From Acidobacteriota bacterium (GTDB lineage Bacteria; Acidobacteriota; Terriglobia; Acidiferrales; UBA7541), in the NCBI GenBank assembly GCA_003224145.1, contig QHYN01000203.1:11201-75200 (forward strand): 64,000 nucleotides of DNA, written 5' to 3'. The notes under the pieces were generated by a model. The model ran no database searches. It was not told the DNA's origin and worked only from the letters and a program-made list of their open reading frames with translations. Below are positions 18,799-37,641 of this stretch, one piece after another (position 1 is the stretch's first letter; every line of letters begins with the position of its first letter). The position numbers were made by a program, and so were the translations under genes.

Positions 18799-20013
18799 AT
18801 GCCAGATTATAAATATCAGGGAACGAGCCGCTCTGGCTCCAGCGTTAGCGGCGTGATGACCGCTTCGAACAAGACGGAACTGGCGAGCCTTTTGAAACGC
18901 CAGCAAATCACCGCGACCAGAATGACCGAGAAGGGGAAGGAGTTCAATATCCCCACGTTCGGCGGCGGTGTTTCCGCCAAGGAGCTGGCCATCTTCACGC
19001 GCCAGTTCTCGGTCATGATTGACGCCGGTCTGCCGCTCGTCCAGTGTCTTGAGATTCTCGCGAGCCAGCAGGAAAACAAGACCTTTCAGAAGGTCTTGAC
19101 CGGGACGCGGGCCCAGGTCGAAGGGGGCGCGACGCTCTCTACCGCGATGAGAAGCTCGCCAAAAGTGTTTGATGCCTTATACGTGAACATGGTCGAGGCC
19201 GGCGAGACGGGCGGTATTCTAGATACCATTCTGCAGCGCCTTTCTACCTACATCGAAAAGAACGTCAAGCTCAAGCGCGCGGTGAAATCGGCCCTGGTCT
19301 ACCCGGTAGGCGTCTTGACCGTAGCCGCCGGCGTCATCACGCTGCTTCTCTGGAAAGTCGTTCCGATCTTCGCGACGCTGTTTGCGGGCCTCGGTGTGGA
19401 TCTTCCGTTGCCCACGAAAATCGTGATCGCTTTAAGCAACTTCGTTGGGAGCATCTTTGGGTTACTGATTCTGGTTGCCCTGGGCGCCATTCTTTTTGGA
19501 TTGAAAGCCTGGTATGGCACTCCCCAGGGGCGCTACATCTTGGACACGATCGTCCTTAAACTGCCTGTCATCGGTATCTTAATGAGAAAGATCGCTGTCG
19601 CCCGCTTTACTCGAACACTAGGGACGTTGATCTCCAGCGGCGTGCCTATCCTCGAAGGATTGGACATCACCGCCAAGACGTCGGGCAACGCGGTTGTCGA
19701 AAAAGCTCTTCTAAAAGTGAGAAAATCGCTCGAAGAGGGCAAGTCGCTCACGGAACCGCTCAAGGAATGTGATGTTTTTCCGGGCATGGTGACGCAGATG
19801 ATTGCGGTCGGCGAACAGACGGGCGCGATGGATGCCATGTTGCAAAAGATCGCCGATTTCTATGAGGAAGAAGTGGATGCGGCGGTGAAGGATCTGCTCA
19901 CGGCTCTCGAACCCATCATGATCGTTTTTCTCGGCCTGGTGGTCGGTGGCGTGGTTATTTCTATGTACTTGCCGCTGTTCTCACTTATCGGAAAACTGAG
20001 CACGATGCACTAA
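18799..20013 (+). CDS. pilC: Type IV pilus inner-membrane platform protein PilC
   Basis: Two T2SSF repeats ([14 protein letters not shown]; [14 protein letters not shown]); GEQTGAMD; LEPIMIV. Confidence 0.93.
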
Positions 20014-20098: not shown

Positions 20099-21748
20099 AT
20101 GGCCCGAAGCCGGGGGCGAGGGCACAGGCAAACAATGGACCAGAGCTTTGCGACCAGAGCATGGCTGGAATGGCTGACACGTGTCCGTCTTCTGACGATC
20201 ACGCTCATCCTGACCGTTGGGGTCGTGTGGCCGCAATACGTACCCGGCTCAAGTACCAACCGCTTTTTTCTTCCTCTGATCATATTCTGGATCACCCTCG
20301 GAATCCTTCATCTTATTCTGCTTCGATGGGTTCCCCAAGCCAGCTGGCATGGTGGACTGCAAGTAACGGGCGATGTGGTGATGGTCACGCTGCTGGTCTA
20401 CCTGACCGGCTTGCAGGAAAGCTATTTCATTTCGCTTTATCTGCTCGTGATTATTGTTGGAAGTATCGTCTTTTCCCGCGGCCTTGCTTTCCTGAACGCG
20501 GCGATCTGCTTCTCTCTTCTAGCCGCCATGGCCATCCTGGCCTACACCGGCAAACTCCCACGCACCTCCACGAGCCTGCCGGCGGTCGAAAGCCTCCGCA
20601 CCTGGCTGGTCATGAATCTCTTGGGTTTTCTTGCGGTCGCTTATCTGGCCAGCCTGCTGGCCCAATCGCTCCGCAGCAAGGGAATCGAACTCGAGGAGAA
20701 GCGCGAGCAGCTTCTTAGTCTCCAGGATTTCACACAAGATATCATCCATTCGATGCGCGGAGGTTTGATTACCACGGACCTGGAGGGGCGTATCCTGCTG
20801 CTCAACCGTACGGGCGAAGAGATCCTCGGACATCGTTTCACGGAGTTGCGCGGCAAGAAGCTCCAAGAGCTGAACGAGGCCTTCTGGCTCCCCGGTCAGT
20901 ACGCCAATGTCGAGAGGCTTTCCCTGAGAAAGGAGATTGATTTCCGCACCCCTTCGGGAGAAGTGCGTTATTTGGGAATCAGCATTTCGCCCTTGCGATT
21001 GCGAACTGACGAACGCAGCGGATACGTGTTCAATTTTCAGGACCTTACCGAGTTGCGTCGGCTGGAGCAGGAAGTCGCAACGAAGGAGCGCATGGCTGCC
21101 CTGGGCCGCCTTTCAGCGGCGATCGCCCACGAGATACGCCAGCCGTTGACGGCCATGGCTGGCGCCGTCAAGGAGCTGGCGCGCCTCGTGCCGCTCGAAG
21201 ACGATGAGAAGCATCTGGTTCATATTGTCAGCCGGGAATCCGAAAGGCTCAACAATATCATTACGGATTTTTTGAACTACTCGCGGGAGAAAACCTACGA
21301 ATTCCATGAAGCCGACGTTCGCACCCTCCTTGATGAGACCCTGATGCTGGTGGAGAAGAAGCCGGAGGTCGGCTCCAAATACAGGATCGTGCGCACCTTC
21401 AACGGGCGGGAACTGCATGCGCGCGTCGATGCCAACAAAATCAAACAAGTGTTCTGGAATCTCTGCGATAACGCTATGCGCGCTATGCCCAATGGAGGCA
21501 CGCTGACGGTGAAGCTGGAGCAGTATCCATTCTGGCTGCGCATTGCCTTTCGCGATACTGGGATTGGTTTGGATGCCAAACAAAAAGCTAAAATCTTTGA
21601 GCCGCTTCAATCGAGCTTCGAGGGCGGCACCGGGTTGGGGTTGTCCATCGTCTATCAGATCGTTCAGGCTCACAGTGGAAAGATCAGCGTTATCTCAGAA
21701 AAAGACCGCGGCGCTGAATTCATTGTCGAATTGCCGCGAGTTGCGTGA
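20099..21748 (+). CDS. pilS: PilS-like sensor histidine kinase
   Basis: About six N-terminal TM helices, a PAS-like region, H-box [10 protein letters not shown] and GTGLGL; lies between pilC and a sigma54 regulator. Confidence 0.82.
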
Positions 21749-21796
21749 GGCGTTATGCAAGGAACGAAAGCTGCTATCAAGGAAGCGGGACGCGAG

Positions 21797-23179
21797 ATGC
21801 CCAATATCCTTGTCGTCGACGATGAGAAATCGATCGGCGAACTGCTCGAGATCACCTTCCGCAAGGAAGGTCACCGGGTTGAAGTGGTGCCTGGCGCTGA
21901 GGCCGCCAAGCGCAAGCTGGAATCGCAGATCTTTGACATTATTATTTCAGATATCCGTATGCCTGGGGAGAGTGGAGTAGACCTCCTCAAGTTTGCCAAG
22001 GAAATTGCCCCGGGGTCATTCTTCCTTTTAATGACGGCGCTTCCTTCCCTGGACACGGCCATCGCGGCACTTAACTCCGGCGCTGATCGCTACGTCATCA
22101 AGGGAGACTCGTTAGTCGATCAATTGCGCCTCGCTGTGCGTGAAGTTTCTGAAAGCCTGAAATGGAAGAAAGAAGCAGGCTATCTGCGCCGCGAACTCCG
22201 CCGTCTCACTGGGCTCGACAATATCATTGGGCAAAGCCCAAAGATGCGCGCCATTTTCGACCTGATTCAAACCGTCGCTCCGCAGGCGAGCCGGGTGCTG
22301 GTGACCGGCGAGAGCGGGACCGGAAAGGAGCTGGTTGCCCGTGCGATTCACGAAAACAGCCTCCGCGCGCAGGCTCCGTTCATTACCATCAATTGCGGCG
22401 CGTTTCCGGAGACCCTTCTGGAATCCGAGCTTTTTGGGTACATGAAAGGCTCTTTCACTGGCGCCAACGAAAACCGGCAAGGGCTCTTCCAGGCAGCGCA
22501 CGGCGGAACTCTTTTTATGGACGAAATCGGTAACATGAGCCTGACCATGCAGGTAAAGTTGTACCGCGTCCTGCAGGAAGGCAAGGTCCGCCCAATCGGC
22601 AGCACCGAGGAATCGGACGTGGATGTTCGGATTATCGCCGCGACCAACAAGGAATTTGAGAAAGAAATCGCCGAAGGCCGCTTCCGCGAGGACCTCTATT
22701 ACCGCCTCAGCGTAATTCCCATCCACGTTCCGGCACTGCGTGAACGCCGGGAGGACATTCCCCTTTTGGCACGGCATTTCCTAGAACGGTTCCGAAAAAG
22801 CATGGAGAAGCCCATCGAGGGAATTACGCCTGAGACGATGACAAAGCTTGAGGCCTACGAATGGCCAGGGAACGTCCGGGAGCTTGAAAACACAATGGAG
22901 CGCGCCGTGGCTTTGGAAACCGGCAGAGAGATCTCCGTGCGGGTGCTGCCGGACCGGATCGCTGGCTATGCGGCAAGCGGGTCGGGTGCATTGATGGGTA
23001 GCCAAGCAATGGAATTCCCCGAAGAAGGCGTCGATTTTGAAAAAGTGATTGCCACAGCCGAGCGCCAATACCTGCAAGCCGCGCTGGAAAAGGCAGGAGG
23101 CGTCCGGACCAGAGCCGCCGAGCTGCTGAAAATCACGTATCGCTCTTTCCGCCATTTCGCCAAGAAACACGGCCTATAG
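21797..23179 (+). CDS. pilR: PilR-like sigma54-dependent response regulator
   Basis: Receiver domain, GESGTGKE, GSFTGA, WPGNVRELEN and HTH; directly upstream of pilin genes carrying sigma54 promoters. ATG 21797 (MPNILVVDD). Confidence 0.85.
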   Translation: MPNILVVDDEKSIGELLEITFRKEGHRVEVVPGAEAAKRKLESQIFDIIISDIRMPGESGVDLLKFAKEIAPGSFFLLMTALPSLDTAIAALNSGADRYVIKGDSLVDQLRLAVREVSESLKWKKEAGYLRRELRRLTGLDNIIGQSPKMRAIFDLIQTVAPQASRVLVTGESGTGKELVARAIHENSLRAQAPFITINCGAFPETLLESELFGYMKGSFTGANENRQGLFQAAHGGTLFMDEIGNMSLTMQVKLYRVLQEGKVRPIGSTEESDVDVRIIAATNKEFEKEIAEGRFREDLYYRLSVIPIHVPALRERREDIPLLARHFLERFRKSMEKPIEGITPETMTKLEAYEWPGNVRELENTMERAVALETGREISVRVLPDRIAGYAASGSGALMGSQAMEFPEEGVDFEKVIATAERQYLQAALEKAGGVRTRAAELLKITYRSFRHFAKKHGL

Positions 23180-23232
23180 TTATTCAAACCAAAAACCTAT
23201 GAATTTCTAGACCCAAACGGCTAGTACAGAGT

Positions 23233-23281
23233 GACGATTTGTGTTTAGAGTGACAGACAAAAAGTGTCGACTGAAAAGGTC
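23233..23281 (+). promoter_or_regulatory. Putative PilR upstream activator sites for pilin 1
   Basis: GACG-N5-TGTT (23233-23245), GACA-N5-TGTC (23256-23268) and GACT-N5-GGTC (23269-23281). Confidence 0.55.
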
Positions 23282-23397
23282 ACTGGCTCCTTTAGACTGT
23301 TTGGCTATCCGCGAATAATGTCCATAGATCACTATAATCCTTTTACTTTCAGCAGGATACATAAGAATCGGCACATGGTCTTTCCCGTAGATTAAGA

Positions 23398-23414
23398 TTG
23401 GCCTCTCGTATGCT
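23398..23414 (+). promoter_or_regulatory. Sigma54 -24/-12 promoter of pilin 1
   Basis: TTGGCCTCTCGTATGCT: GG at 23400-23401, exactly 10 nt, GC at 23412-23413. Confidence 0.7.
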
Positions 23415-23461
23415 CCCTAGGGAGCCGTGCTCTGGCATCACACAATTCTCAAGGAGATAGC

Positions 23462-23950
23462 ATGAAGAAACAGAAGGGTTTCTCTCTTATCGAGCTCTTG
23501 ATCGTCGTGGCGATCATTTTGATCATCGCGGCCATCGCTATTCCGAACTTGCTCCGGTCCCGTATGGCCGCGAACGAGTCTTCGGCAGTGGGTACGGTCC
23601 GCACGCTGAACACGGCGGAAGTCACCTTCTCAACGACATATCCGGCAGTTGGTTTCGGCGCACTGACCGCTCTGGGCGGTGCTCCGGCCACCTGCACAAC
23701 GACCGCGAGTTCAACCGCTGCGTGCTTGGTTGACAATACCATCTCGCAGGCGCCGAATCAGAAGAGTGGATATACCTTCTCGATTGGGAACTTGCTTGGA
23801 GCGCCGACAGTGGTGCAGTATAGCTCGCTGGCGGTGCCGATTGTTGTTGGACAGAGCGGGCAGCGTGGGTTCTGCTCCGACCAATCCGGCGTCATCCGCT
23901 ATAATGCGGCTGGCACCGGTTGCGCGGTCACCACGGACCCGGCACTTTAA
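23462..23950 (+). CDS. pilA: Type IVa major pilin, copy 1
   Basis: MKKQKG|FSLIELLIVVAII prepilin leader with Glu5; four Cys; AAGGAG ribosome-binding site. Confidence 0.9.
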   Translation: MKKQKGFSLIELLIVVAIILIIAAIAIPNLLRSRMAANESSAVGTVRTLNTAEVTFSTTYPAVGFGALTALGGAPATCTTTASSTAACLVDNTISQAPNQKSGYTFSIGNLLGAPTVVQYSSLAVPIVVGQSGQRGFCSDQSGVIRYNAAGTGCAVTTDPAL

Positions 23951-23991
23951 GGCGTCATCCCTGCGGCTGGTTGTTGGCCGCGCTTGAAAAC

Positions 23992-24023
23992 GAAAAGCAC
24001 GGGATGCGAATCCCGTGCTTTTC
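23992..24023. terminator. Intrinsic (probably bidirectional) terminator after pilin 1
   Basis: Perfect 14-bp stem GAAAAGCACGGGAT / ATCCCGTGCTTTTC with a GCGA loop. Confidence 0.85.
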
Positions 24024-24125
24024 AGTTATAAGGTACTGCACGCAATCTTGGGAGCCTCCGTAGTTGCTGACGAGTTTTGCAGCTGAATGCTTTGCCCCGA
24101 AGTGACCATTTATGCTTTACAAGGC

Positions 24126-24140
24126 TGACAAAAACTGTCA
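24126..24140 (+). promoter_or_regulatory. Putative PilR site for pilin 2
   Basis: Palindromic TGACA-AAAAC-TGTCA about 128 nt upstream of the -24 GG; a weaker GACC-N5-TGCT at 24104-24116. Confidence 0.55.
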
Positions 24141-24264
24141 AACTAAGGCGTATTTGCTTGTGACGGGGAGCAAGGACTCAGCTACTAGTTAATAATTCAG
24201 CGAATAATCTCTTTGTATTGAGTAGGATACAGGATGGTAGAGATGTCACGCCGGAATTCTCACT

Positions 24265-24281
24265 TTGGTCCCTGCTTTGCT
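24265..24281 (+). promoter_or_regulatory. Sigma54 -24/-12 promoter of pilin 2
   Basis: TTGGTCCCTGCTTTGCT: GG at 24267-24268, 10 nt, GC at 24279-24280. Confidence 0.7.
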
Positions 24282-24336
24282 TCCACCACAGTGTGCCTTT
24301 GCAGGTAAAAATTCTCTCAAGGAGTCAGGAGACAGC

Positions 24337-24876
24337 ATGAAGAAACAGAAGGGTTTCTCTCTTATCGAGCTCTTGATCGTCGTGGCGATCATTCTGATCA
24401 TCGCGGCCATCGCTATTCCGAACTTGCTCCGGTCCCGCATGGCCGCGAACGAGTCTTCGGCAGTGGGTACGGTCCGCACGCTGAACACGGCGGAAGTCAC
24501 CTTCTCAACGACATATCCGGCAGTTGGTTTCGGCGCACTGACCGCTCTGGGCGGTGCTCCGGCCACCTGCACAACGACCGCGAGTTCAACCGCCGCGTGC
24601 TTGGTTGACGATACCATCGCGCAGGCGCCGAATCAGAAGAGTGGATATACCTTCTCGATTGGGAACTTGCTTGGAGCGCCGACAGTGGTGCAGTATAGCT
24701 CGCTGGCGGTGCCGATTGTTGTTGGACAGAGCGGGCAGCGTGGGTTCTGCTCCGACCAATCCGGCGTCATCCGCTATAATGCGGCTGGCACCGGTTGCGC
24801 GGTCACCACGGACCCGGCACCTGTAGTTTCGCTCTTCCCTTGGCAATTGAACGGTGACCTAAAATGTCCCCAATAG
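24337..24876 (+). CDS. pilA: Type IVa pilin, copy 2 (near-identical to copy 1, frameshift-extended C-terminus)
   Basis: Five substitutions relative to copy 1 (two nonsynonymous: N/D, S/A). An extra C at ~24820 puts CTG TAG (24821-24826) out of frame. ATG at 24337. Confidence 0.88.
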   Translation: MKKQKGFSLIELLIVVAIILIIAAIAIPNLLRSRMAANESSAVGTVRTLNTAEVTFSTTYPAVGFGALTALGGAPATCTTTASSTAACLVDDTIAQAPNQKSGYTFSIGNLLGAPTVVQYSSLAVPIVVGQSGQRGFCSDQSGVIRYNAAGTGCAVTTDPAPVVSLFPWQLNGDLKCPQ

Positions 24877-24898
24877 GGGTTCAGGGACTATTTCTGTC
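24856..24898 (+). promoter_or_regulatory. Putative PilR sites for pilin 3
   Basis: GACC-N5-TGTC (24856-24868) and GACT-N5-TGTC (24886-24898). Confidence 0.5.
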
Positions 24899-24989
24899 AA
24901 TATGGGTCAGAACACCCATCAACCAGGCCACCATCTTCCTGTAAGTCTATGAATTTAAGCATTTTATCGGCATGTTAGTGCCCGGCGAG

Positions 24990-25006
24990 TTGGCCCGCAA
25001 AATGCT
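24990..25006 (+). promoter_or_regulatory. Sigma54 -24/-12 promoter of pilin 3
   Basis: TTGGCCCGCAAAATGCT: GG at 24992-24993, 10 nt, GC at 25004-25005. Confidence 0.7.
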
Positions 25007-25043
25007 CCATCATTCTGGTGAATTGAGCGCCTGGAGACGACCT

Positions 25044-25520
25044 ATGGGGAGAAAACAAACAGGCTTTTCTCTGATCGAGCTGCTGATCGTGGTGGCGATT
25101 ATCATGATCATCGCCGCGATAGCGTTGCCCAGTCTCTTGAGTGCTCGCATCTCCGCCAACGAGGCTTCCGCAGTGCAGAGCCTTCGCACCATCCAGACAT
25201 CGGAAACGGAATACGCCACGACTTATCCCAACCTTGGCTACTCCGCCACGCTTGCGGATCTCGGCGGGGCGAGTAGTAGTGCATGCGTCCCTTCGCCGAC
25301 ACTGGCCTGCCTGATCGACAACCTTCTGGCCAGCGGTACGAAAAGTGGGTACAACATCACGTGGGCTGGCGACGGCCTTACGCCCTCTGTCAGCTACAAC
25401 CTTAACGCCGACCCCATTGTTCGTGGTACCAGCGGCCGACGGAGTTTTTACACGAATTATCCGGGCGTGATCCGTTACAACGATACGGGTCCGGCAACGG
25501 TAAATGACCCTGCCATCTAG
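25044..25520 (+). CDS. Type IVa pilin, divergent paralogue 3
   Basis: MGRKQTG|FSLIELLIVVAII leader; only two Cys (the C-terminal pair is absent). ATG at 25044. Confidence 0.88.
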   Translation: MGRKQTGFSLIELLIVVAIIMIIAAIALPSLLSARISANEASAVQSLRTIQTSETEYATTYPNLGYSATLADLGGASSSACVPSPTLACLIDNLLASGTKSGYNITWAGDGLTPSVSYNLNADPIVRGTSGRRSFYTNYPGVIRYNDTGPATVNDPAI

Positions 25521-25611
25521 GCCCATCTTACCCAGCTTCTCCAAGGTGTGAGGAACCAGCGCCAGTAGGTTAAGGTTCTATACCACGGCTGGGGCTTGCT
25601 AAACTGTTGGC

Positions 25612-26334
25612 ATGCTCCAGTGCATTCATCCCTACCTCTTTTTGTTTCTGACGATCATTGGTGCCCCCGATGTAAAGGTTCTTGTCAGCCGCTTGGAGGC
25701 GAGGTATCGCTCGGCCAGAACACTGCAAGCTACTTTTCTGGAACGCTACACTGAAAACGGGCGCGTGGTTCGCGTGGAAGCCGGCACGGTCTATTTTCGC
25801 AGGCCTGGCAAGATGCGCTGGGAGTATGACTCCCCGGAGAAGAATCTTTTCCTGGTGGATGGCAAGACCGCCTGGTTCTACGTTCGCGCCGATCGCACCG
25901 TCACGCGTGTTCCGGCGAAGGAGAGTAGCGATTGGCGGACGCCTTTGGCCTTACTGGCCGGAGAGATGAAACTTTCCAGGGTCTGCGAGAAAGTTCAATC
26001 GGCTTTTGACGAGCCTGCGGAATCTTCCGCGGACGCCATGCTCTACTGCGAGTTGAGGGCAGCGGAGGAAAAAATACAGGAACAGGGTGTTGCCGCCGGC
26101 ATGCCGAACGTGACCGCGGCGCGCGATATGGTTTATCTCGAGATTGTTCAGAGCTCCGGAGATCTTGTCCGCATCTTGGTGAAGAATTCCGGAGGAGTGG
26201 GGATTGAATTCCGCTTTGCCGGCTGGCAGTACAATCCACAGGTTGCTGATTCGCTCTTCCATTTCAGCGTTCCTCCGGGCGTGGCCATCGTGAATGGGGA
26301 ATTACCCCCTAATCAGGCAGGGGCAACACCTTGA
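25612..26334 (+). CDS. lolA: Outer-membrane lipoprotein carrier LolA family
   Basis: LQATF, G.VYFRRPGKMRWEY, LFLVDGKTAWFY and FHFSVPPGVAIV motifs. Confidence 0.85.
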   Translation: MLQCIHPYLFLFLTIIGAPDVKVLVSRLEARYRSARTLQATFLERYTENGRVVRVEAGTVYFRRPGKMRWEYDSPEKNLFLVDGKTAWFYVRADRTVTRVPAKESSDWRTPLALLAGEMKLSRVCEKVQSAFDEPAESSADAMLYCELRAAEEKIQEQGVAAGMPNVTAARDMVYLEIVQSSGDLVRILVKNSGGVGIEFRFAGWQYNPQVADSLFHFSVPPGVAIVNGELPPNQAGATP

Positions 26335-26427: not shown

Positions 26428-27642
26428 ATGGGAGAATTTGTCTGCCGCGTAGCGGATGCCGAGGGACGTGTCTTTTCCCACGTCGAGCCCGCGAACTCGC
26501 TCGACGAAGCGCGCCAGAAACTAGCGGATCGGGGCTTGTACGTCTACTCGGTGGAAACCCGTGGCGGCCGTCTTGGCGCGTTGGTCCGCCCAAGGTCTGG
26601 GCGGCAGATCACCGGCTCGGAATTCCTCGTTCTCAACCAGCAGTTCAACACACTCATCAAAGCCGGTCTGCCCATCCTGCGGGCCTTGGATCTCCTGGCG
26701 ACGCGCGCCAGTGCTCCCAAACTTCGCCCGGTGATCGCCCAGATCCGGGACCATGTGCGGGAAGGGAAATCGCTCTCGGAGGCGGTCGCGGAATCGGGTT
26801 TGTTTTCCAAAGTCTATTCGACGGCGATCCTTGCGGGAGAAAAAAGCGGGAATCTGCCCGGGGTGTTGGACTATTACATCGCCTATCAGCGCGTGAGCAC
26901 GGGCGTGCGCAAGAAGATTCTCGCCACACTCGTCTATCCCTGTCTGCTGATAACCGTTGCCACCATTATCGTGACCTACTTGGTCACCGGGGTCATTCCG
27001 AAATTTGCGCTTCTGTATCGCGATTTAAACGTGGAACTCCCGGCGCCGACACGCCTGTTGATAGCCCTGACGGTTGACTACCGTTTCGTGTTTTTGGGTG
27101 TCGTGGCCCTGATCGTGGCGACGGCTGCGGGAGTTTTTCTATGGTCACGCACCGAGGGAGGCGGAACAGCTTTCGACCGTTTCAAGTTCCGCCTGCCGAT
27201 CATCGGAGACACGCTTCTCAAATTTCAGGTGGCACAATTCTCGCGCACGCTCGCGACGCTCCTGACCGGGGGCACACCGCTGGTGGCGGGGCTGCAAACG
27301 GCTACCGACGCCATTACCAGCAAACTGTTGCGTTCTACCGTCGCTCAGGCAACCCAGACGGTCCGCGAGGGGCAGTCGCTGCACGTGGCTCTCTCTTCCA
27401 ACGGGGTCATTCCCGAAATGGCGCTGGACATGATTGAAGTCGGCGAATCGAGCGGCGCGCTTTCACCCATGCTCAATAGCGTGGCGGAGTTTTATGAAGA
27501 AGAGGTCAATGTGCGGCTCTCCGCGCTGGTTGCCATCATCGAGCCGGTTTTACTGATCTTCATGGGATTGTTTGTTGCCTTTATTCTCATTTCGCTCTAT
27601 TTGCCCATTTTTTCTTTCTCTCTGAGCGGAGCGACAAGATAA
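26428..27642 (+). CDS. Second T2SSF/PilC-family platform protein
   Basis: QQFNTLIKAGLPIL, FSRTLATLLTGGTPL and GESSGAL...IEPVLLI motifs. Confidence 0.9.
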   Translation: MGEFVCRVADAEGRVFSHVEPANSLDEARQKLADRGLYVYSVETRGGRLGALVRPRSGRQITGSEFLVLNQQFNTLIKAGLPILRALDLLATRASAPKLRPVIAQIRDHVREGKSLSEAVAESGLFSKVYSTAILAGEKSGNLPGVLDYYIAYQRVSTGVRKKILATLVYPCLLITVATIIVTYLVTGVIPKFALLYRDLNVELPAPTRLLIALTVDYRFVFLGVVALIVATAAGVFLWSRTEGGGTAFDRFKFRLPIIGDTLLKFQVAQFSRTLATLLTGGTPLVAGLQTATDAITSKLLRSTVAQATQTVREGQSLHVALSSNGVIPEMALDMIEVGESSGALSPMLNSVAEFYEEEVNVRLSALVAIIEPVLLIFMGLFVAFILISLYLPIFSFSLSGATR

Positions 27643-27648
27643 GGAATT

Positions 27649-29292
27649 ATGGCCACCACCGACCAACACACGAATGTGATTGCCGGCGCGGCATCGGCTG
27701 CCGAAGAGCAGCAAGAACGCGAGTTCGCGCGCAAACTTGCCGAGCGGTATCGATACGCCTTTATCGACCTGCGCGAACAGCGCATCGATCCTGAATTGTT
27801 TCGCACCATACCTGCGGACTTGATGTTCCGCTACAACTTCGTCCCGTTGGAAACGCACAACAACATTTTGGCAATTGCCGCGGCTGATCCCGGCCAGGTC
27901 CAGAGCAGCGATGAGCTGCCGCTCCTTCTCGGCAAGAAGCTTCTGATTCGCGTCGCGACTGCCCGTCAGATCGGTGATCTGCTGAAGCGCACCGAGCAAT
28001 CGCAGCGCGTCCTGGAACAGGCCACGGAAGCCTTCACTCTGCAGACCTCCAAGGAGGAAGAGGAAAGCGAAGAGACCATTTCCGGCGACCGCTTGACTCG
28101 CGACAGCACCGCCAGCCCGGTGGTGCGCCTCGTGGAAACCATCATCTTCACCGCGCTCGAGCGGCGCGCCAGCGACGTTCACATCGAAGCGCGCGATACC
28201 GAAGTGGCCGTCAAGTACCGCATCGATGGCGTCTTGCAGCATGCCATGCAGCCCATCGCCAAGGAATGGCATTCCATGGTGCTCTCACGCATCAAGGTTT
28301 TGAGCGACTTGGACATTGCCGAGCGCCGCGTCCCGCAAGACGGCCGCTTCCGTGTGCGCTACAAAGGGCGTTACATTGACTTGCGCGTTTCGATCATGCC
28401 CGCCAGCCACGGCGAAGACGCCGTTCTTCGCGTGCTCGATAAAGAAACCCTTTCGGAGAAGTTCCAAAACTTGAATTTGGATGTGGTCGGCTTCTCCCGC
28501 GAGGAGCTCCAACGTTTCCGCCGCTACATTCGGGAGCCTTATGGCATGGTTCTCGTGACCGGCCCCACGGGCTCCGGCAAGACAACTACGCTCTACGCGG
28601 CTATCAATGAAATTAAGAGCGATGATGACAAATTCGTCACCATCGAGGACCCGGTTGAATACCAGGTACGGGGCATCACCCAGATTCCCGTCAACGAGAA
28701 AAAAGGCTTAACCTTCGCCCGGGGATTGCGTTCCATCCTGCGTCACGACCCGGACAAGATCATGGTCGGCGAGATTCGCGACCAGGAGACCGCGCAAATT
28801 GCAATTCAGTCCGCCCTCACAGGCCATCTCGTCTTCACCACGGTTCACGCCAACAACGTAACGGACGTGATCGGCCGCTTCATCAATATGGGTGTCGAGC
28901 CTTATAACTTTGTCTCCGCGCTGAACTGCATCATGGCGCAACGGCTTGTCCGCGTGATCTGCCCGAATTGCAAGCGCCCCAAGAAGTTTTCTTTGGAGGA
29001 GTTGAAAGACGTAGGTCTCGATCCCGGCGTGTGGTCCAGTGTCGTCCTGGTCGAGGGCGTCGGATGTCTGGAATGCTCGGGGACCGGGTATCACGGCCGA
29101 ACGGCGATCTGCGAATTGCTGGACTTGACGGACCGTATCCGGGAAATGATCATTGACCGTAGGCCGACTTCGGAGATCAAACGCGTTGCGCGTGAAGAAG
29201 GAATGATCACTTTGCGGGAAAGCGGATTGGCGAAAGTGCGCGCCGGCACTACGACCATTAAAGAAATCAACAAGGTGACTTTCGTTGAGTAG
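27649..29292 (+). CDS. Second GspE/PilB-family assembly ATPase (no MshEN motif)
   Basis: PQDGRF, GPTGSGKT, LRHDPDKIMVGEIRD; CxxC pairs CPNC and CLEC. Confidence 0.92.
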   Translation: MATTDQHTNVIAGAASAAEEQQEREFARKLAERYRYAFIDLREQRIDPELFRTIPADLMFRYNFVPLETHNNILAIAAADPGQVQSSDELPLLLGKKLLIRVATARQIGDLLKRTEQSQRVLEQATEAFTLQTSKEEEESEETISGDRLTRDSTASPVVRLVETIIFTALERRASDVHIEARDTEVAVKYRIDGVLQHAMQPIAKEWHSMVLSRIKVLSDLDIAERRVPQDGRFRVRYKGRYIDLRVSIMPASHGEDAVLRVLDKETLSEKFQNLNLDVVGFSREELQRFRRYIREPYGMVLVTGPTGSGKTTTLYAAINEIKSDDDKFVTIEDPVEYQVRGITQIPVNEKKGLTFARGLRSILRHDPDKIMVGEIRDQETAQIAIQSALTGHLVFTTVHANNVTDVIGRFINMGVEPYNFVSALNCIMAQRLVRVICPNCKRPKKFSLEELKDVGLDPGVWSSVVLVEGVGCLECSGTGYHGRTAICELLDLTDRIREMIIDRRPTSEIKRVAREEGMITLRESGLAKVRAGTTTIKEINKVTFVE

Positions 29293-35072: not shown

Positions 35073-35520
35073 GTAAAAATAAAGTATTTCTGTTGAGCAA
35101 GTTGCGGAATCGTTCGAATTGGCGTGTAAGAAAAAGAAAACACAGGGGTAGAGTTTACAGGGGGCGGAGGGAAATGCAGGAGAGTGGAATGAATGGCGCT
35201 GGCGGGCGCAAGAGGAACAAGAAAAGGCAAAGTCAAAGGCCCCACACGTAAAACCGACATGTTGGGGCACCCAAATTCGTATCAAGATTTATCGTCCGGG
35301 CCACCCGCCGAGTGGCTGTTCGCTGGATGAGGATTTTACCCACAGCGTCAACGTTCTTCCGCCCGGAGCTGAGATGAGTGACCCTATAATGAGGGCTTAT
35401 CCGAACCGCGAACGTGGAAGTGCTTGCTTCTAGGCCGCCTTGTCCACGGCGATTTAGGTGGGTCGGCCAAGACAAGCGGTGGGCGCATTGCGGGGCGCAC
35501 GGAAAGGAAGAGAGCCGCCG

Positions 35521-35937
35521 ATGAAGATCCCAGAACAGCTGCATGCCTCCGCCGCCGAAGAAGCGAAAAAAAAAGAAGTTCGTCGGCAGCTTGACTTCGC
35601 ATATGCCTGCTTCGCCCTTCTCGGCCTGACCATGCTGGCCTTTGAGGCCGAAGCATTTGTCGACGCAAAGAACCAGGGAGCTTACGCAATGACCATTGGC
35701 CTGCTGCTTCTCCTGCCATCCATGCTCGCTTTTGTGCTCGCCATCTGCCTGACTGTGATGCGCCGGCGTTACCGGCCCATCGTCGTCTTTTGCCTTCTCA
35801 CCATGCTGCTTCTGGCCCTGGCGATTGGAAGCGTTGCCATGGCCTGGATCTACGGAGCCGTCTCCATGCTCGTACCTGCCTGGTGGTTCACCGTCGGCAG
35901 ATGGCGCAATGCGATCCCTCCCCGCTCGCTTGGGTGA
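35521..35937 (+). CDS. Unknown small polytopic membrane protein, paralogue A
   Basis: About four hydrophobic helices; motifs LDFAYACF and PAWWFTVGRWR shared with three neighbours. ATG at 35521. Confidence 0.75.
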   Translation: MKIPEQLHASAAEEAKKKEVRRQLDFAYACFALLGLTMLAFEAEAFVDAKNQGAYAMTIGLLLLLPSMLAFVLAICLTVMRRRYRPIVVFCLLTMLLLALAIGSVAMAWIYGAVSMLVPAWWFTVGRWRNAIPPRSLG

Positions 35938-35982
35938 TAAGCGACGGGAGTGGAATGATATAGAGAACATAAGGAGGCACTG

Positions 35983-36417
35983 ATGACGATCCCAGGACAG
36001 CCGCATGCCTCCCCCGCCGAAGAAGCGGAGAAAAAAGAAGTTCGTCGGCAGCTTGACTTCGCGTATGCCTGCCTCGCTTTTGTGGGCTTCACAATGTTGG
36101 CCTATGTGGCCGAACCATTCTTTGTTGACGCGAAGAGCCCAGGGGCAGAAGCAGGCTATAGCTTTGTTGTCGGCATAGGCCTTGTGCTTCCCTCGATGCT
36201 CGCACTTGTGCTCGCCATTTGCTTGACCGTGATGCGCCGGCGTCACCAGCCGATCGTAATCTTCTGCATGCTCAACGTGCTGCTTCTATCTCTGGCTCTA
36301 ATCTGGGAGAACAATTCCATGCGGTGGGTCTACGGAACTGTTTCAATGCTCGTACCTGCCTGGTGGTTCACCGTCGGCAGATGGCGTAACACGGACACGC
36401 CGCTCTTGCAGCCATGA
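35983..36417 (+). CDS. Unknown small polytopic membrane protein, paralogue B
   Basis: LDFAYACL and PAWWFTVGRWR; AAGGAGG ribosome-binding site; tandem duplicate of A. Confidence 0.78.
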   Translation: MTIPGQPHASPAEEAEKKEVRRQLDFAYACLAFVGFTMLAYVAEPFFVDAKSPGAEAGYSFVVGIGLVLPSMLALVLAICLTVMRRRHQPIVIFCMLNVLLLSLALIWENNSMRWVYGTVSMLVPAWWFTVGRWRNTDTPLLQP

Positions 36418-36522
36418 ATCTCCCTTCCTCCTTACTTTTCCTCACTTCTCGTTTCGATATTTCAACAGTTATCACACAGTGCCGCGCTCCCAGGCACCTG
36501 TCTTGGTATGACCACCTGAAGT

Positions 36523-37038
36523 TTATTCCTGAGCGAGCGCCTTGCTTCTGTAGCGCCGTCTGCCCATGGCAAACCACCACGCCGGTAATAGGATGTTGGC
36601 GGCTATATAGATTGCGGCTCCGATGGCCACTGCATTGTCGAGATAATGTGGAAGGTTAGGTGCGTCCGAGTGGGATATGTAAATCATGGCTCCGCCCACA
36701 CAAACTATCGAGACCACGGAAAGAACCACGAGCGCCGAGTGACGCCAGAACTTCACGGTCAGTACGATGCCGCACACCGAAGCAAAGAGCATTCCCACTA
36801 AAAGCAGAGGACCTAAAAGCATCGCCCCGACCAACGTCCACCCAAAGCCGTGCGAACCTTCATCAAAGTTCACCAGGCCAAACTGTGACAGTAAGGCGGC
36901 AATGCCGAAAGACATGGTCACCAAGCCGAGAAAGCCGAAGCAGCCATAGGCCCGGTCCAGCAGGGCGTCCTCGCTCTTTTCTGTGACTGCTTTTAGCACT
37001 GCTCTTAGCAGGGCGAAGATGGCTTCCAGCAAGTCCAT
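36523..37038 (-). CDS. Unknown small polytopic membrane protein, paralogue C
   Basis: LDRAYGCFGFLG and PAWWFAMGRRRYRSKA; its ATG directly follows the TAA of paralogue D. Confidence 0.78.
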   Translation of the reverse strand: MDLLEAIFALLRAVLKAVTEKSEDALLDRAYGCFGFLGLVTMSFGIAALLSQFGLVNFDEGSHGFGWTLVGAMLLGPLLLVGMLFASVCGIVLTVKFWRHSALVVLSVVSIVCVGGAMIYISHSDAPNLPHYLDNAVAIGAAIYIAANILLPAWWFAMGRRRYRSKALAQE

Positions 37039-37641
37039 TTACTTGACTTCCTTCTCGCTCACTATCCGTTCATTCGCCTTGCTTCTGTAGCGCCGCCTGC
37101 CCATGGTGAACCACCACGCGGGTATGAAGATGTTCGCGGTTATGTAGATCCCGAATGCGATGCCCAGCACATAGCCCGTCACATAGTCGAGAGTGGGATG
37201 GAGGTCCGAATAGCGCATGTAAATCATCGTTCCGCCCCAAAAAATGATCGAGATCACGGAAAGAACCACGAGCGCCGGGTGCCGGAACCGCACCGTCTGC
37301 CGGATGCCGTAGATCGTGGCACAGAGCATTCCCGGAATACCTAAAAATATCGTCCATCCCTCCAACTTTATCCCGACGATGGCGTCAAAGTTCATCAGGT
37401 GGAACTCGTCCAGTAAGGCGCCAAGGCCGAAGGGCAGGGTCACCAATCCGAGAAAGGCAAAGCAGCGATAGGCGCGGTTCAGCCGCGCATACTCCAACCG
37501 AAGGACCTCACTACTGTTTTCCGGGACAAGGGCAGGCGACGCCGGCTGGTGTACTGGCGTCGAATGTGAATCCCTCCAATACTTCGCCAGCAACAGGACC
37601 GTCGCGGCCACGATCAAAAGCGTTGTCAGGCTGACATCCAC
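37039..37641 (-). CDS. Unknown small polytopic membrane protein, paralogue D (extra N-terminal TM)
   Basis: LNRAYRCFAFLG and PAWWFTMGRRRYRSKA; GTG start with an AGGAG site upstream. Confidence 0.78.
   Translation of the reverse strand: MDVSLTTLLIVAATVLLLAKYWRDSHSTPVHQPASPALVPENSSEVLRLEYARLNRAYRCFAFLGLVTLPFGLGALLDEFHLMNFDAIVGIKLEGWTIFLGIPGMLCATIYGIRQTVRFRHPALVVLSVISIIFWGGTMIYMRYSDLHPTLDYVTGYVLGIAFGIYITANIFIPAWWFTMGRRRYRSKANERIVSEKEVK

Follow-up and report, generated by a model that had tools for sequence, protein, structure and literature searches.

Adjacent type IV pilin genes of an uncultured acidobacterium and the probable concerted evolution of their coding regions

How can two neighbouring genes stay almost the same from start codon to stop codon when the DNA in front of each has changed nearly beyond alignment? 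The question is raised by P1 and P2, two adjacent pilin genes that lie downstream of pilS and pilR, with a third pilin paralogue, P3, behind them, in a 64-kb stretch of contig QHYN01000203.1 (hereafter the window, meaning the whole stretch of DNA that was analysed). The host is an uncultured, Acidoferrales-like acidobacterium, and since the best reference PilR is 89% identical, its species is not among the reference genomes. The evidence set out below indicates that P1 and P2 are, with good probability, ancient tandem duplicates of a major type IVa pilin gene in a PilS/PilR- and sigma-54-controlled locus, whose coding parts have been repeatedly homogenised.

The pilin genes and the block that P1 and P2 have in common are the following.

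23462..23950, + strand: pilin P1, a type IVa prepilin of 162 amino acids with Asn92 and Ser95, identified by TIGR02532, a structure model (mean predicted local distance difference test, pLDDT, 89) and PDB matches to pilins.
24337..24876, + strand: pilin P2, 179 amino acids, which differs from P1 by Asp92, Ala95 and the replacement of the final Leu by an 18-residue extension, PVVSLFPWQLNGDLKCPQ.
23452..23945, + strand: copy 1 arm of the near-identical block, 494 nucleotides, from sequence comparison.
24327..24820, + strand: copy 2 arm of the near-identical block, 494 nucleotides, from sequence comparison.
25044..25520, + strand: third pilin paralogue P3, 158 amino acids, with 51% amino acid and 63% nucleotide identity to P1.

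In an ungapped comparison, the two arms, offset by 875 nucleotides, differ at six positions. Five of these are within the open reading frame (ORF), namely 23519 TTG/CTG, 23563 CGT/CGC, 23719 GCT/GCC, 23735 AAT/GAT (N92D) and 23744 TCG/GCG (S95A), and reproduce exactly the differences listed in an initial annotation of this DNA; the sixth, 23458 T/C, is located 4 nucleotides 5' of the ATG, in the Shine-Dalgarno region. Over the final 200 nucleotides of the block, P1 and P2 are the same. By zone, their identity is 40-55% at -120 to -31, ~70% at -30 to -1 and 96-100% from +1. Further out, the 280-390 nucleotides 5' of P1 and of P2 are ~55-60% alike and align only in conserved blocks that follow the same order, in agreement with the earlier description of the upstream regions as similar at the level of motifs. 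The 64-kb window holds no pilin copies or fragments beyond P1, P2 and P3, all of which are full-length and preceded by predicted promoters.

Where does the identity end? It had been proposed that it collapses just outside the ORF, which is correct for the 5' side, where the step falls at the ATG, and incorrect for the 3' side, where the block stops 5 nucleotides ahead of the P1 stop codon (CTT TAA) and its edge is a deletion in P2 that was seen in this window only. Two features define this region.

23951..24024, + strand: 3' untranslated region (3'UTR) of P1 with two hairpins, the second of which (~23989-24024) is an intrinsic terminator followed by UUUUC (-40.2 kcal/mol, z = -5.2).
24818..24823, + strand: junction of a 113-nucleotide deletion (24820|24821) with a 3-nucleotide CAC repeat at its borders, relative to two other assemblies of the species, L001 and L002, and all sister species.

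Compared with L001 and L002, which are 99.9% identical to the window, 113 nucleotides are missing from window P2, with CAC at both borders. The deletion takes the Leu codon, the stop codon, the 3'UTR and the terminator, and the ORF runs 18 more codons to 24876, an extension that brings a fifth Cys. No terminator-like fold is present 3' of window P2 (z = 0.0), and transcription of the extended gene would continue towards P3. In L001 and L002, P2 ends with ...DPAL-stop like P1 and is followed by a 3'UTR and a terminator of its own, and the repeat extends to the equivalent of window 24024, ~573 nucleotides in all, with four mismatches in the 3'UTR. An identical tract that continues ~85 nucleotides beyond the stop codon, through the terminator, is found in other assemblies of the species and in four sister species, and the two-hairpin 3'UTR with its terminator is conserved after P1 and P2 in all relatives. 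The undeleted P2 end is present in all four soil runs, as Logan contigs, and in all four sister species, the words that span the deletion junction GGCAC|CTGTAG are in none of the runs searched, and no other assembly on record has a gene for the exact 179-residue product. Slippage across the terminator hairpin between the CAC repeats is a plausible cause of the deletion, and an assembler join on a 3-nucleotide overlap is an unlikely one. Whether the deletion is private to this genome or an error, the 3' edge of window P2 is not where the homogenised tract naturally ends.

Is the tandem pair itself real? This repeat is one at which short-read contigs are often broken or collapsed: L005-L007 stop within or just past copy 1, and L004 and L005 carry a single copy, which is what a mis-scaffolded or falsely duplicated repeat in the window might lead one to expect. 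Against such an artefact, the flanks of the two copies differ on both sides, the independent assemblies L001 and L002 contain both complete copies, four others (L003, L008-L010) contain copy 1 and the start of copy 2, and a 369-nucleotide Logan contig spans the P1 terminator, the spacer and the P2 start in three of the four soil runs (X1, X2 and X4). The same architecture also occurs on megabase-scale contigs of relatives. Given several assemblies and the Logan joins, the tandem pair is not an assembly artefact, an explanation that retains scarcely any probability, and the premise that both copies exist and are separately resolved stands. Genes for a protein identical to P1 occur on 13 metagenome contigs, which derive from soil projects and from a single NCBI metagenome-assembled genome (MAG), and a wider metagenome scan with the pilin returned mostly distant matches on short contigs. 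The sequencing evidence consists of Logan contigs, which show the tandem order and the undeleted P2 end and cannot phase variants; the linkage of the C,G,G variants to the P1 3'UTR in these contigs is left uninterpreted because bubbles were popped across the identical 240 nucleotides. In population contigs, the variant combinations differ between positions, with unreliable phasing.

How old, then, is the duplication? A protein search and context look-ups identified four sister species, L093, L091, L096 and L097, that share the gene order of the window, and the nucleotide identities of their pilR genes to that of the window are 88.8%, 88.1%, 84.6% and 79.9%, respectively. Neighbour-joining trees with bootstrap were built for P1 and P2 and for the spacers upstream of them, named u1 and u2. 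Within a genome, the P1 and P2 ORFs are 98.4% identical in the window, 100% in L093, 98.6% in L096, 96.7% in L097 and 89.1% in L091; between genomes, pilin ORFs are 80-87% identical, the exception being L091 P2, which is 91.6% identical to L093. The spacers behave in the opposite way: window u1 is 78.2% identical to L093 u1 and window u2 is 83.7% identical to L093 u2, against 59.6% between u1 and u2 of the window. In the trees, P1 and P2 pair by genome with a bootstrap of 100 in the window, L093, L096 and L097, and the five u2 spacers form one clade (bootstrap 88, and 100 for window and L093) apart from the u1 spacers. The number of synonymous substitutions per synonymous site (dS) between P1 and P2 within a genome is 0.024 in the window, 0 in L093, 0.048 in L096, 0.104 in L097 and 0.26 in L091, and between species it is 0.25-0.67 (about 0.43-0.67 from the window to its sister species).

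Two links follow from these values. The u2 spacers are orthologous across five species, which places the duplication before the split of those species, and dS within genomes is low, so the homogenisation includes synonymous sites and does not reflect purifying selection alone. An old duplication with homogenised coding regions and separate regulatory regions was what the initial annotation had suggested, and the ORFs indeed cluster by genome and not by locus, the spacers by position. A recent duplication of the ORF alone, independent in each lineage and without conversion, would be another way to near-identical copies, which could simply be young, and because pilins evolve fast the ORF tree alone is insufficient to decide the matter. 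Such an origin is very improbable, however, given the orthology of u2 in five species and the common edge at the ATG, which would need to have arisen independently in more than 20 species.

The remaining features of the five-species comparison concern the shape of the homogenised tract. The identity step is at the ATG in six genomes, and the 3' edges vary between species. In L091, the copies are mosaic, with ends that are 93-100% identical and a centre that is 66-86% identical. The number of nonsynonymous substitutions per nonsynonymous site (dN) reaches 0.13 and is raised about twofold in the window lineage (0.10-0.13 against 0.035-0.058 among its relatives, at similar dS); this increase is common to both copies and thus shows how changes spread to both genes. 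P3 evolves by position, as orthologues ordinarily do (identity of window P3 86.7% to that of L093, 80.8% to that of L096 and 76% to that of L097), and judged from these identities it is outside the homogenisation.

Does the pattern extend beyond this small group? With PilR as an anchor, 80 related loci were fetched, all of them from Acidobacteriota MAGs labelled Acidoferrales or Acidiferrum, and 49 of the 80 have at least two complete pilins after pilR. Adjacent pilin copies that are 88-99% identical in nucleotides occur in 22 of these 49 species, and for those pairs the closest pilin of any other genome is mostly 70-83% identical. The 300 nucleotides upstream of the near-identical genes are 52-67% identical in most pairs, hardly different from the alignment baseline. 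Identity begins 0-13 nucleotides 5' of the ATG in 29 of 30 pairs, and its right edge is at the stop codon or 20-100 nucleotides past it. Twelve of the 22 loci lie within contigs of 0.27-1.4 Mb, so short-read assembly is not a precondition of the pattern. In an independent clade, formed by L085, L089 and L090, the spacers match by position; the L090 copies pair together (93.3% against at most 83% to L085 and L089), whereas the copies of the closer pair L085/L089 still pair by position (93.3% against 88%). Homogenisation is therefore episodic.

The number of near-identical copies is 1, 2, 3 or 4 among the relatives: L031 has three, L052 has one and L046 two, and L085 also belongs to this varying set. 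From such variation it follows that unequal exchange happens as well. In one relative (L039:11701-15010), five pilin genes are arranged as ABABA (159, 173, 159, 173 and 159 amino acids), with A copies that are 95-97% identical, B copies that are 94.6% identical and a spacer before each B that is 95% identical, an array that looks like a recently amplified two-gene unit.

These comparisons show an old tandem duplication of a unit that comprised enhancer, promoter, ORF and terminator. The promoter regions then diverged almost to saturation, yet were conserved by position between species, and the stretch from the ribosome-binding site through the ORF, normally through the terminator, was homogenised repeatedly, probably overwritten by homologous recombination between the direct repeats. 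The presumed agent is RecA-type homologous recombination between repeats 875 nucleotides apart, by conversion or by unequal sister-strand exchange, and both copies would evolve as one gene, a new pilin variant spreading to both. The conserved 5' coding region, which encodes the leader and the alpha1 helix, probably supplies perfect homology for strand exchange, and strand exchange may be halted at the start codon by the diverged promoter DNA, which would account for the position of the edge in so many species. The likely benefit would be a doubled supply of an abundant filament subunit from two separately tuned promoters, and because the copies stay alike, their subunits should still be able to assemble together.

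What could drive two such genes separately? The elements predicted upstream of the pilins are listed here.

23399..23414, + strand: sigma-54 -24/-12 box of P1, TGGCCTCTCGTATGCT, from a pattern search, conserved in five species.
24266..24281, + strand: sigma-54 -24/-12 box of P2, TGGTCCCTGCTTTGCT, from a pattern search, conserved by position.
24991..25006, + strand: sigma-54 -24/-12 box of P3, TGGCCCGCAAAATGCT, from a pattern search.
23231..23284, + strand: P1 enhancer-like element, GTGACGATTTGTG followed by the palindrome GACA-N5-TGTC (23256-23268), invariant blocks in u1 of five species.
24102..24139, + strand: P2 enhancer-like element, GTGACCATTTATGC followed by the palindrome GACA-N5-TGTC (24127-24139), conserved in u2 of five species.

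The pattern TGGY-N7-WTGCT has seven matches in the window against 2.0 expected, three of which are situated 39-57 nucleotides 5' of the three pilin ATGs, where each of P1, P2 and P3 is preceded by a GG-N10-GC sigma-54 box. The layout of the P2 enhancer-like element is homologous to that of P1; the block GTGACnATTnATG, the GACA-N5-TGTC palindrome and a GATACA block are common to both upstream regions and conserved by position in five species. From this conservation and the gene context, the palindrome region is a putative PilR enhancer with a predicted PilR binding site. The -12 region differs consistently between the two promoters across species, being ATGCT in u1 and TTTGC in u2. Between the -12 box and the Shine-Dalgarno sequence there is also a conserved block in the 5' untranslated region (5'UTR), GTGCTCTGGCA in u1 (window 23427-23446) and GTGCnnTTGCA-like in u2 (24290-24312), which is likewise seen in u1 and u2 of L091-L097. 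The 5'UTRs of P1 and P2 show no significant fold (z = +1.0 and +0.2), and a scan of 22900-25800 with Rfam gave no match. In metatranscriptomes of the same study, nothing of this species turned up, and the only matches are to the conserved N-terminal coding stretch of other pilins.

Both copies keep a prepilin leader (MKKQKG|FSLIE) and a sigma-54-type promoter. That each has a leader and a promoter had been recognised at the outset, and two uses had been considered for them, a dosage system and a two-expression-site diversification system. Nothing supports the second. A variation system like that of Neisseria, with the copies as donors for antigenic variation, might be suggested by pilins that differ greatly between species and by the raised dN of the window lineage; it is nonetheless extremely improbable, for both copies are full-length with promoters and, differing at two residues only, have almost no variation to exchange. 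In addition, the 64-kb window contains no promoterless or 5'-truncated silent pilin cassettes, and no G-quadruplex (G4) motif (G3+N1-7 x4) occurs on either strand of 22900-25800.

Are the few differences that remain between the copies random? In five species (that of the window, L091, L096, L097 and, at a greater distance, L036), the codon that follows CL[V/I]D (codon 92, window 23735/24610) specifies Asn in the upstream gene and Asp in the downstream one, and in L096 it is the sole amino acid difference between the copies. L178, whose upstream region is of the copy 2 type, has Asp at this codon, and the reverse polarity, Asp upstream and Asn downstream, is found at it in no genome examined. 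The exceptions are L001 and L002 with Asn/Asn and L093 with Asp/Asp, which are short-read contigs with 100% identical copies. With 7 (L096) and 16 (L097) differing bases, chance sharing of both site and polarity is unlikely (rough estimate < 1e-3). Counted over all near-identical adjacent pairs, Asn upstream with Asp downstream is seen 11 times against 3 for the reverse, and other substitution pairs are symmetric, in a small and non-independent sample (L025, L031, L036, L043, L066, L067, L091, L096, L097 and the window). A second recurrent Asn/Asp site, VIRxN/D, is present near the C-terminus (L031, twice in L066, and L067). As for a bacterial N-glycosylation sequon at the first site, VDNTI does not, on inspection, fit D/E-X-N-X-S/T.

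These observations suggest that the Asn/Asp difference may be protected from homogenisation and that P1 and P2 may represent distinct isoforms and not mere duplicates, which is a lead and not a result. Recombination would in that case homogenise everything except a selected Asn/Asp pair, an addition to concerted evolution and not a replacement of it. The same polarity in five species, the sole difference in L096, the Asp of L178, the lack of reversed pairs and the consistently different -12 regions speak for such a scheme; L001, L002 and L093 do without the difference, albeit in short-read contigs with identical copies, the sample is small and drawn from related lineages, and recurrent A-to-G change at one site could produce the same pattern. 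On balance, two isoforms kept on purpose are unlikely; on that view the two pilins would co-assemble into a heteropolymeric pilus or serve different conditions through differently tuned promoters. The strongest form, in which the pair would be a two-isoform system and not a dosage duplicate, with recombination keeping the genes co-assembling and co-evolving and selection shielding Asn/Asp and the two sigma-54 promoters from homogenisation in at least five species, is more doubtful still. If two isoforms do exist, the cell could adjust the surface charge of its pili through the ratio of two otherwise identical subunits.

How firmly, in the end, can repeated conversion of the coding parts be held? 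Several points weigh against it or narrow it. The Asn/Asp difference is kept by position in five species, so the homogenisation is incomplete and the copies may not be simply redundant. A dosage role of the pair is plausible, with both promoters known from prediction only. The 113-nucleotide deletion, seen in this window only, is either private to this genome or an error. The phasing of variants inside the repeat is uncertain in the window and in the short-read contigs, and the 100% identity of the copies in L001 and L093 may be partly assembler-made. Single-copy contigs with P1-type upstream and P2-type downstream DNA, L004 and L005 in the window species and L094 and L095 in the L093 species, may have arisen by collapse in assembly or be genuine products of deletion through unequal exchange. 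Finally, cycles of unequal crossing-over, that is, contraction to one copy and re-expansion, give the same pattern as non-reciprocal conversion, and the present data cannot separate them. Homogenisation by such cycles is possible, if somewhat unlikely: the copy number of 1-4 among relatives (L052 against L046, L031, the ABABA array of L039, and L085) and the single-copy contigs in two species would fit it, but those contigs may be collapses, and short conversion tracts explain the mosaic of L091 and the differing 3' edges no less well. One process does not, moreover, exclude the other, and both need homologous recombination; repeated homogenisation of an old pair is retained as the preferred reading.

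That the genes encode type IV pilins follows from the leader, TIGR02532, the predicted fold and the gene context. The N-terminus of P1 and P2, MKKQKG|FSLIELLIVVAII, has the type IV prepilin leader and cleavage site, with Gly followed by Phe+1 and Glu+5 (MKKQKG|FSLIELL). TIGR02532 scores 32.9-34.0 bits on the two proteins (32.9 on P1) against a cut-off of 16.3, and PF07963 is recorded on proteins identical to the window pilins. An AlphaFold model built with 50 homologues (pLDDT 89.1) consists of a 51-residue N-terminal helix (9-59) and a four-stranded sheet (104-112, 119-126, 136-140 and 146-148), and its top three PDB matches are P. aeruginosa PilE, PAK pilin 1oqw (prob 0.99) and D. nodosus FimA, with weak E-values of 0.013-0.03. 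Among the cysteines (Cys78, Cys88, Cys138 and Cys154), which are candidates for the C-terminal disulfide-bonded loop (D-region) of such pilins, Cys88 is invariant and Cys138 nearly so in the 50 homologues. On these sequence features, P1 and P2 are type IVa major prepilins, with a predicted role as main pilus subunit.

The locus as a whole has the order pilB-pilT-pilC-pilS-pilR-P1-P2-P3, followed by a LolA-like gene, a second pilC and pilB and pilM-P-like genes; the genes around the pilins include three T2SSE and two T2SSF genes, PilS, PilR and PilO-like genes. The two regulatory genes are these.

20135..21748, + strand: pilS-type sensor histidine kinase (6TM_PilS, PAS, HisKA, HATPase_c), from the ORF and Pfam domains on the identical L001 gene (537 amino acids).
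21755..23179, + strand: pilR-type sigma-54-dependent response regulator (Response_reg, Sigma54_activat, HTH_8).

The LolA-like gene (25612-26334), which scores 94 bits with TIGR00547, under the cut-off of 112, sits between the pilins and the second pilC/pilB in the window, and it has the same place in each of the four sister contigs that reach past P3 (L001, L093, L096 and L097). Positions 18799-20013, 26428-27642 and 27649-29292 belong to a locus with two pilC-type (T2SSF) genes and, when the upstream genes of L001 are included, two pilB-type ATPases, a make-up that suggests two assembly motors around one pilin set. Elsewhere in the window, a second set of tandem paralogues at 35458-37641 comprises four small membrane proteins (159 and 144 amino acids on the + strand, 171 and 200 amino acids on the - strand, convergent) with a common C-terminal motif, PAWWFTxGRxR, and 80-85% nucleotide identity in blocks.

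Is there a known system of this kind? The flagellin genes flaA and flaB are a textbook example of tandem duplicates that evolve in concert. In Campylobacter jejuni they are adjacent, ~95% identical and provided with their own promoters (PMC5126078). As tandem genes for a main filament subunit, each with its own promoter, they are the closest analogue of P1 and P2, and they differ in that the filament is a flagellum and not a type IV pilus, that sigma-28 and sigma-54 are used in place of sigma-54 boxes at both copies, and that FlaB is a minor component of the flagellum. The tufA/tufB genes and rRNA operons are paralogues that are kept near-identical at synonymous sites over long periods by RecA-dependent conversion (PMC5485169, PMC8022953, PMC6053082), but they are dispersed and belong to the slow core machinery, whereas here the genes are in tandem and encode a fast-evolving pilin (between-species dS and dN as given above). 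Of the 26 genes listed in a survey of long-lasting concerted evolution in prokaryotes, none is a pilin (PMC6053082).

Among pilins, PilE1 and PilE2 of Streptococcus sanguinis are reportedly clearly diverged, at roughly four-fifths identity. They are tandem major pilins that co-assemble into a heteropolymeric type IV pilus (PMC6497953, PMC10628169). P1 and P2 are similarly arranged, and the contrast is that S. sanguinis is a monoderm whose diverged copies are not reported as homogenised, whereas P1 and P2 differ at two residues. Gene conversion acts on a pilin gene in Neisseria too, where many silent, promoterless and 5'-truncated pilS cassettes bring diversity into one expressed pilE gene; here, by contrast, it would erase differences between two complete promoter-bearing genes. 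In control, the locus resembles pilA of Pseudomonas, Myxococcus and Geobacter, where pilS-pilR immediately precede a pilin gene that has a -24/-12 promoter and an activator site upstream of it; this site is predicted here from conservation only. PilS/PilR models usually have one pilA target, in contrast to the three successive pilin genes of this locus, each with a sigma-54 box. No publication was found that describes tandem type IV pilin genes evolving in concert, within an incomplete coverage of the literature. The process itself is known, and the pilin pair is a clear further example of it that recurs in many related species.

The locus offers a clean example, tested by phylogeny, of a fast-evolving bacterial surface protein that is subject to concerted evolution, and the example extends through a whole group, an order of soil Acidobacteriota that are abundant but uncultured. 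Pilin trees in the group do not report duplication history, and pilin copy counts from short-read assemblies are unreliable, since the copies are collapsed or broken at the repeat. Conversion tracts appear to be fenced by diverged promoters, with a left edge at most ~13 nucleotides from the start codon in nearly every species examined. A pilin variant could be fixed in both genes at once, which bears on arms races with phages or predators that use the pilus, and the recurring Asn/Asp difference is a concrete lead on why bacteria keep several major pilin genes.

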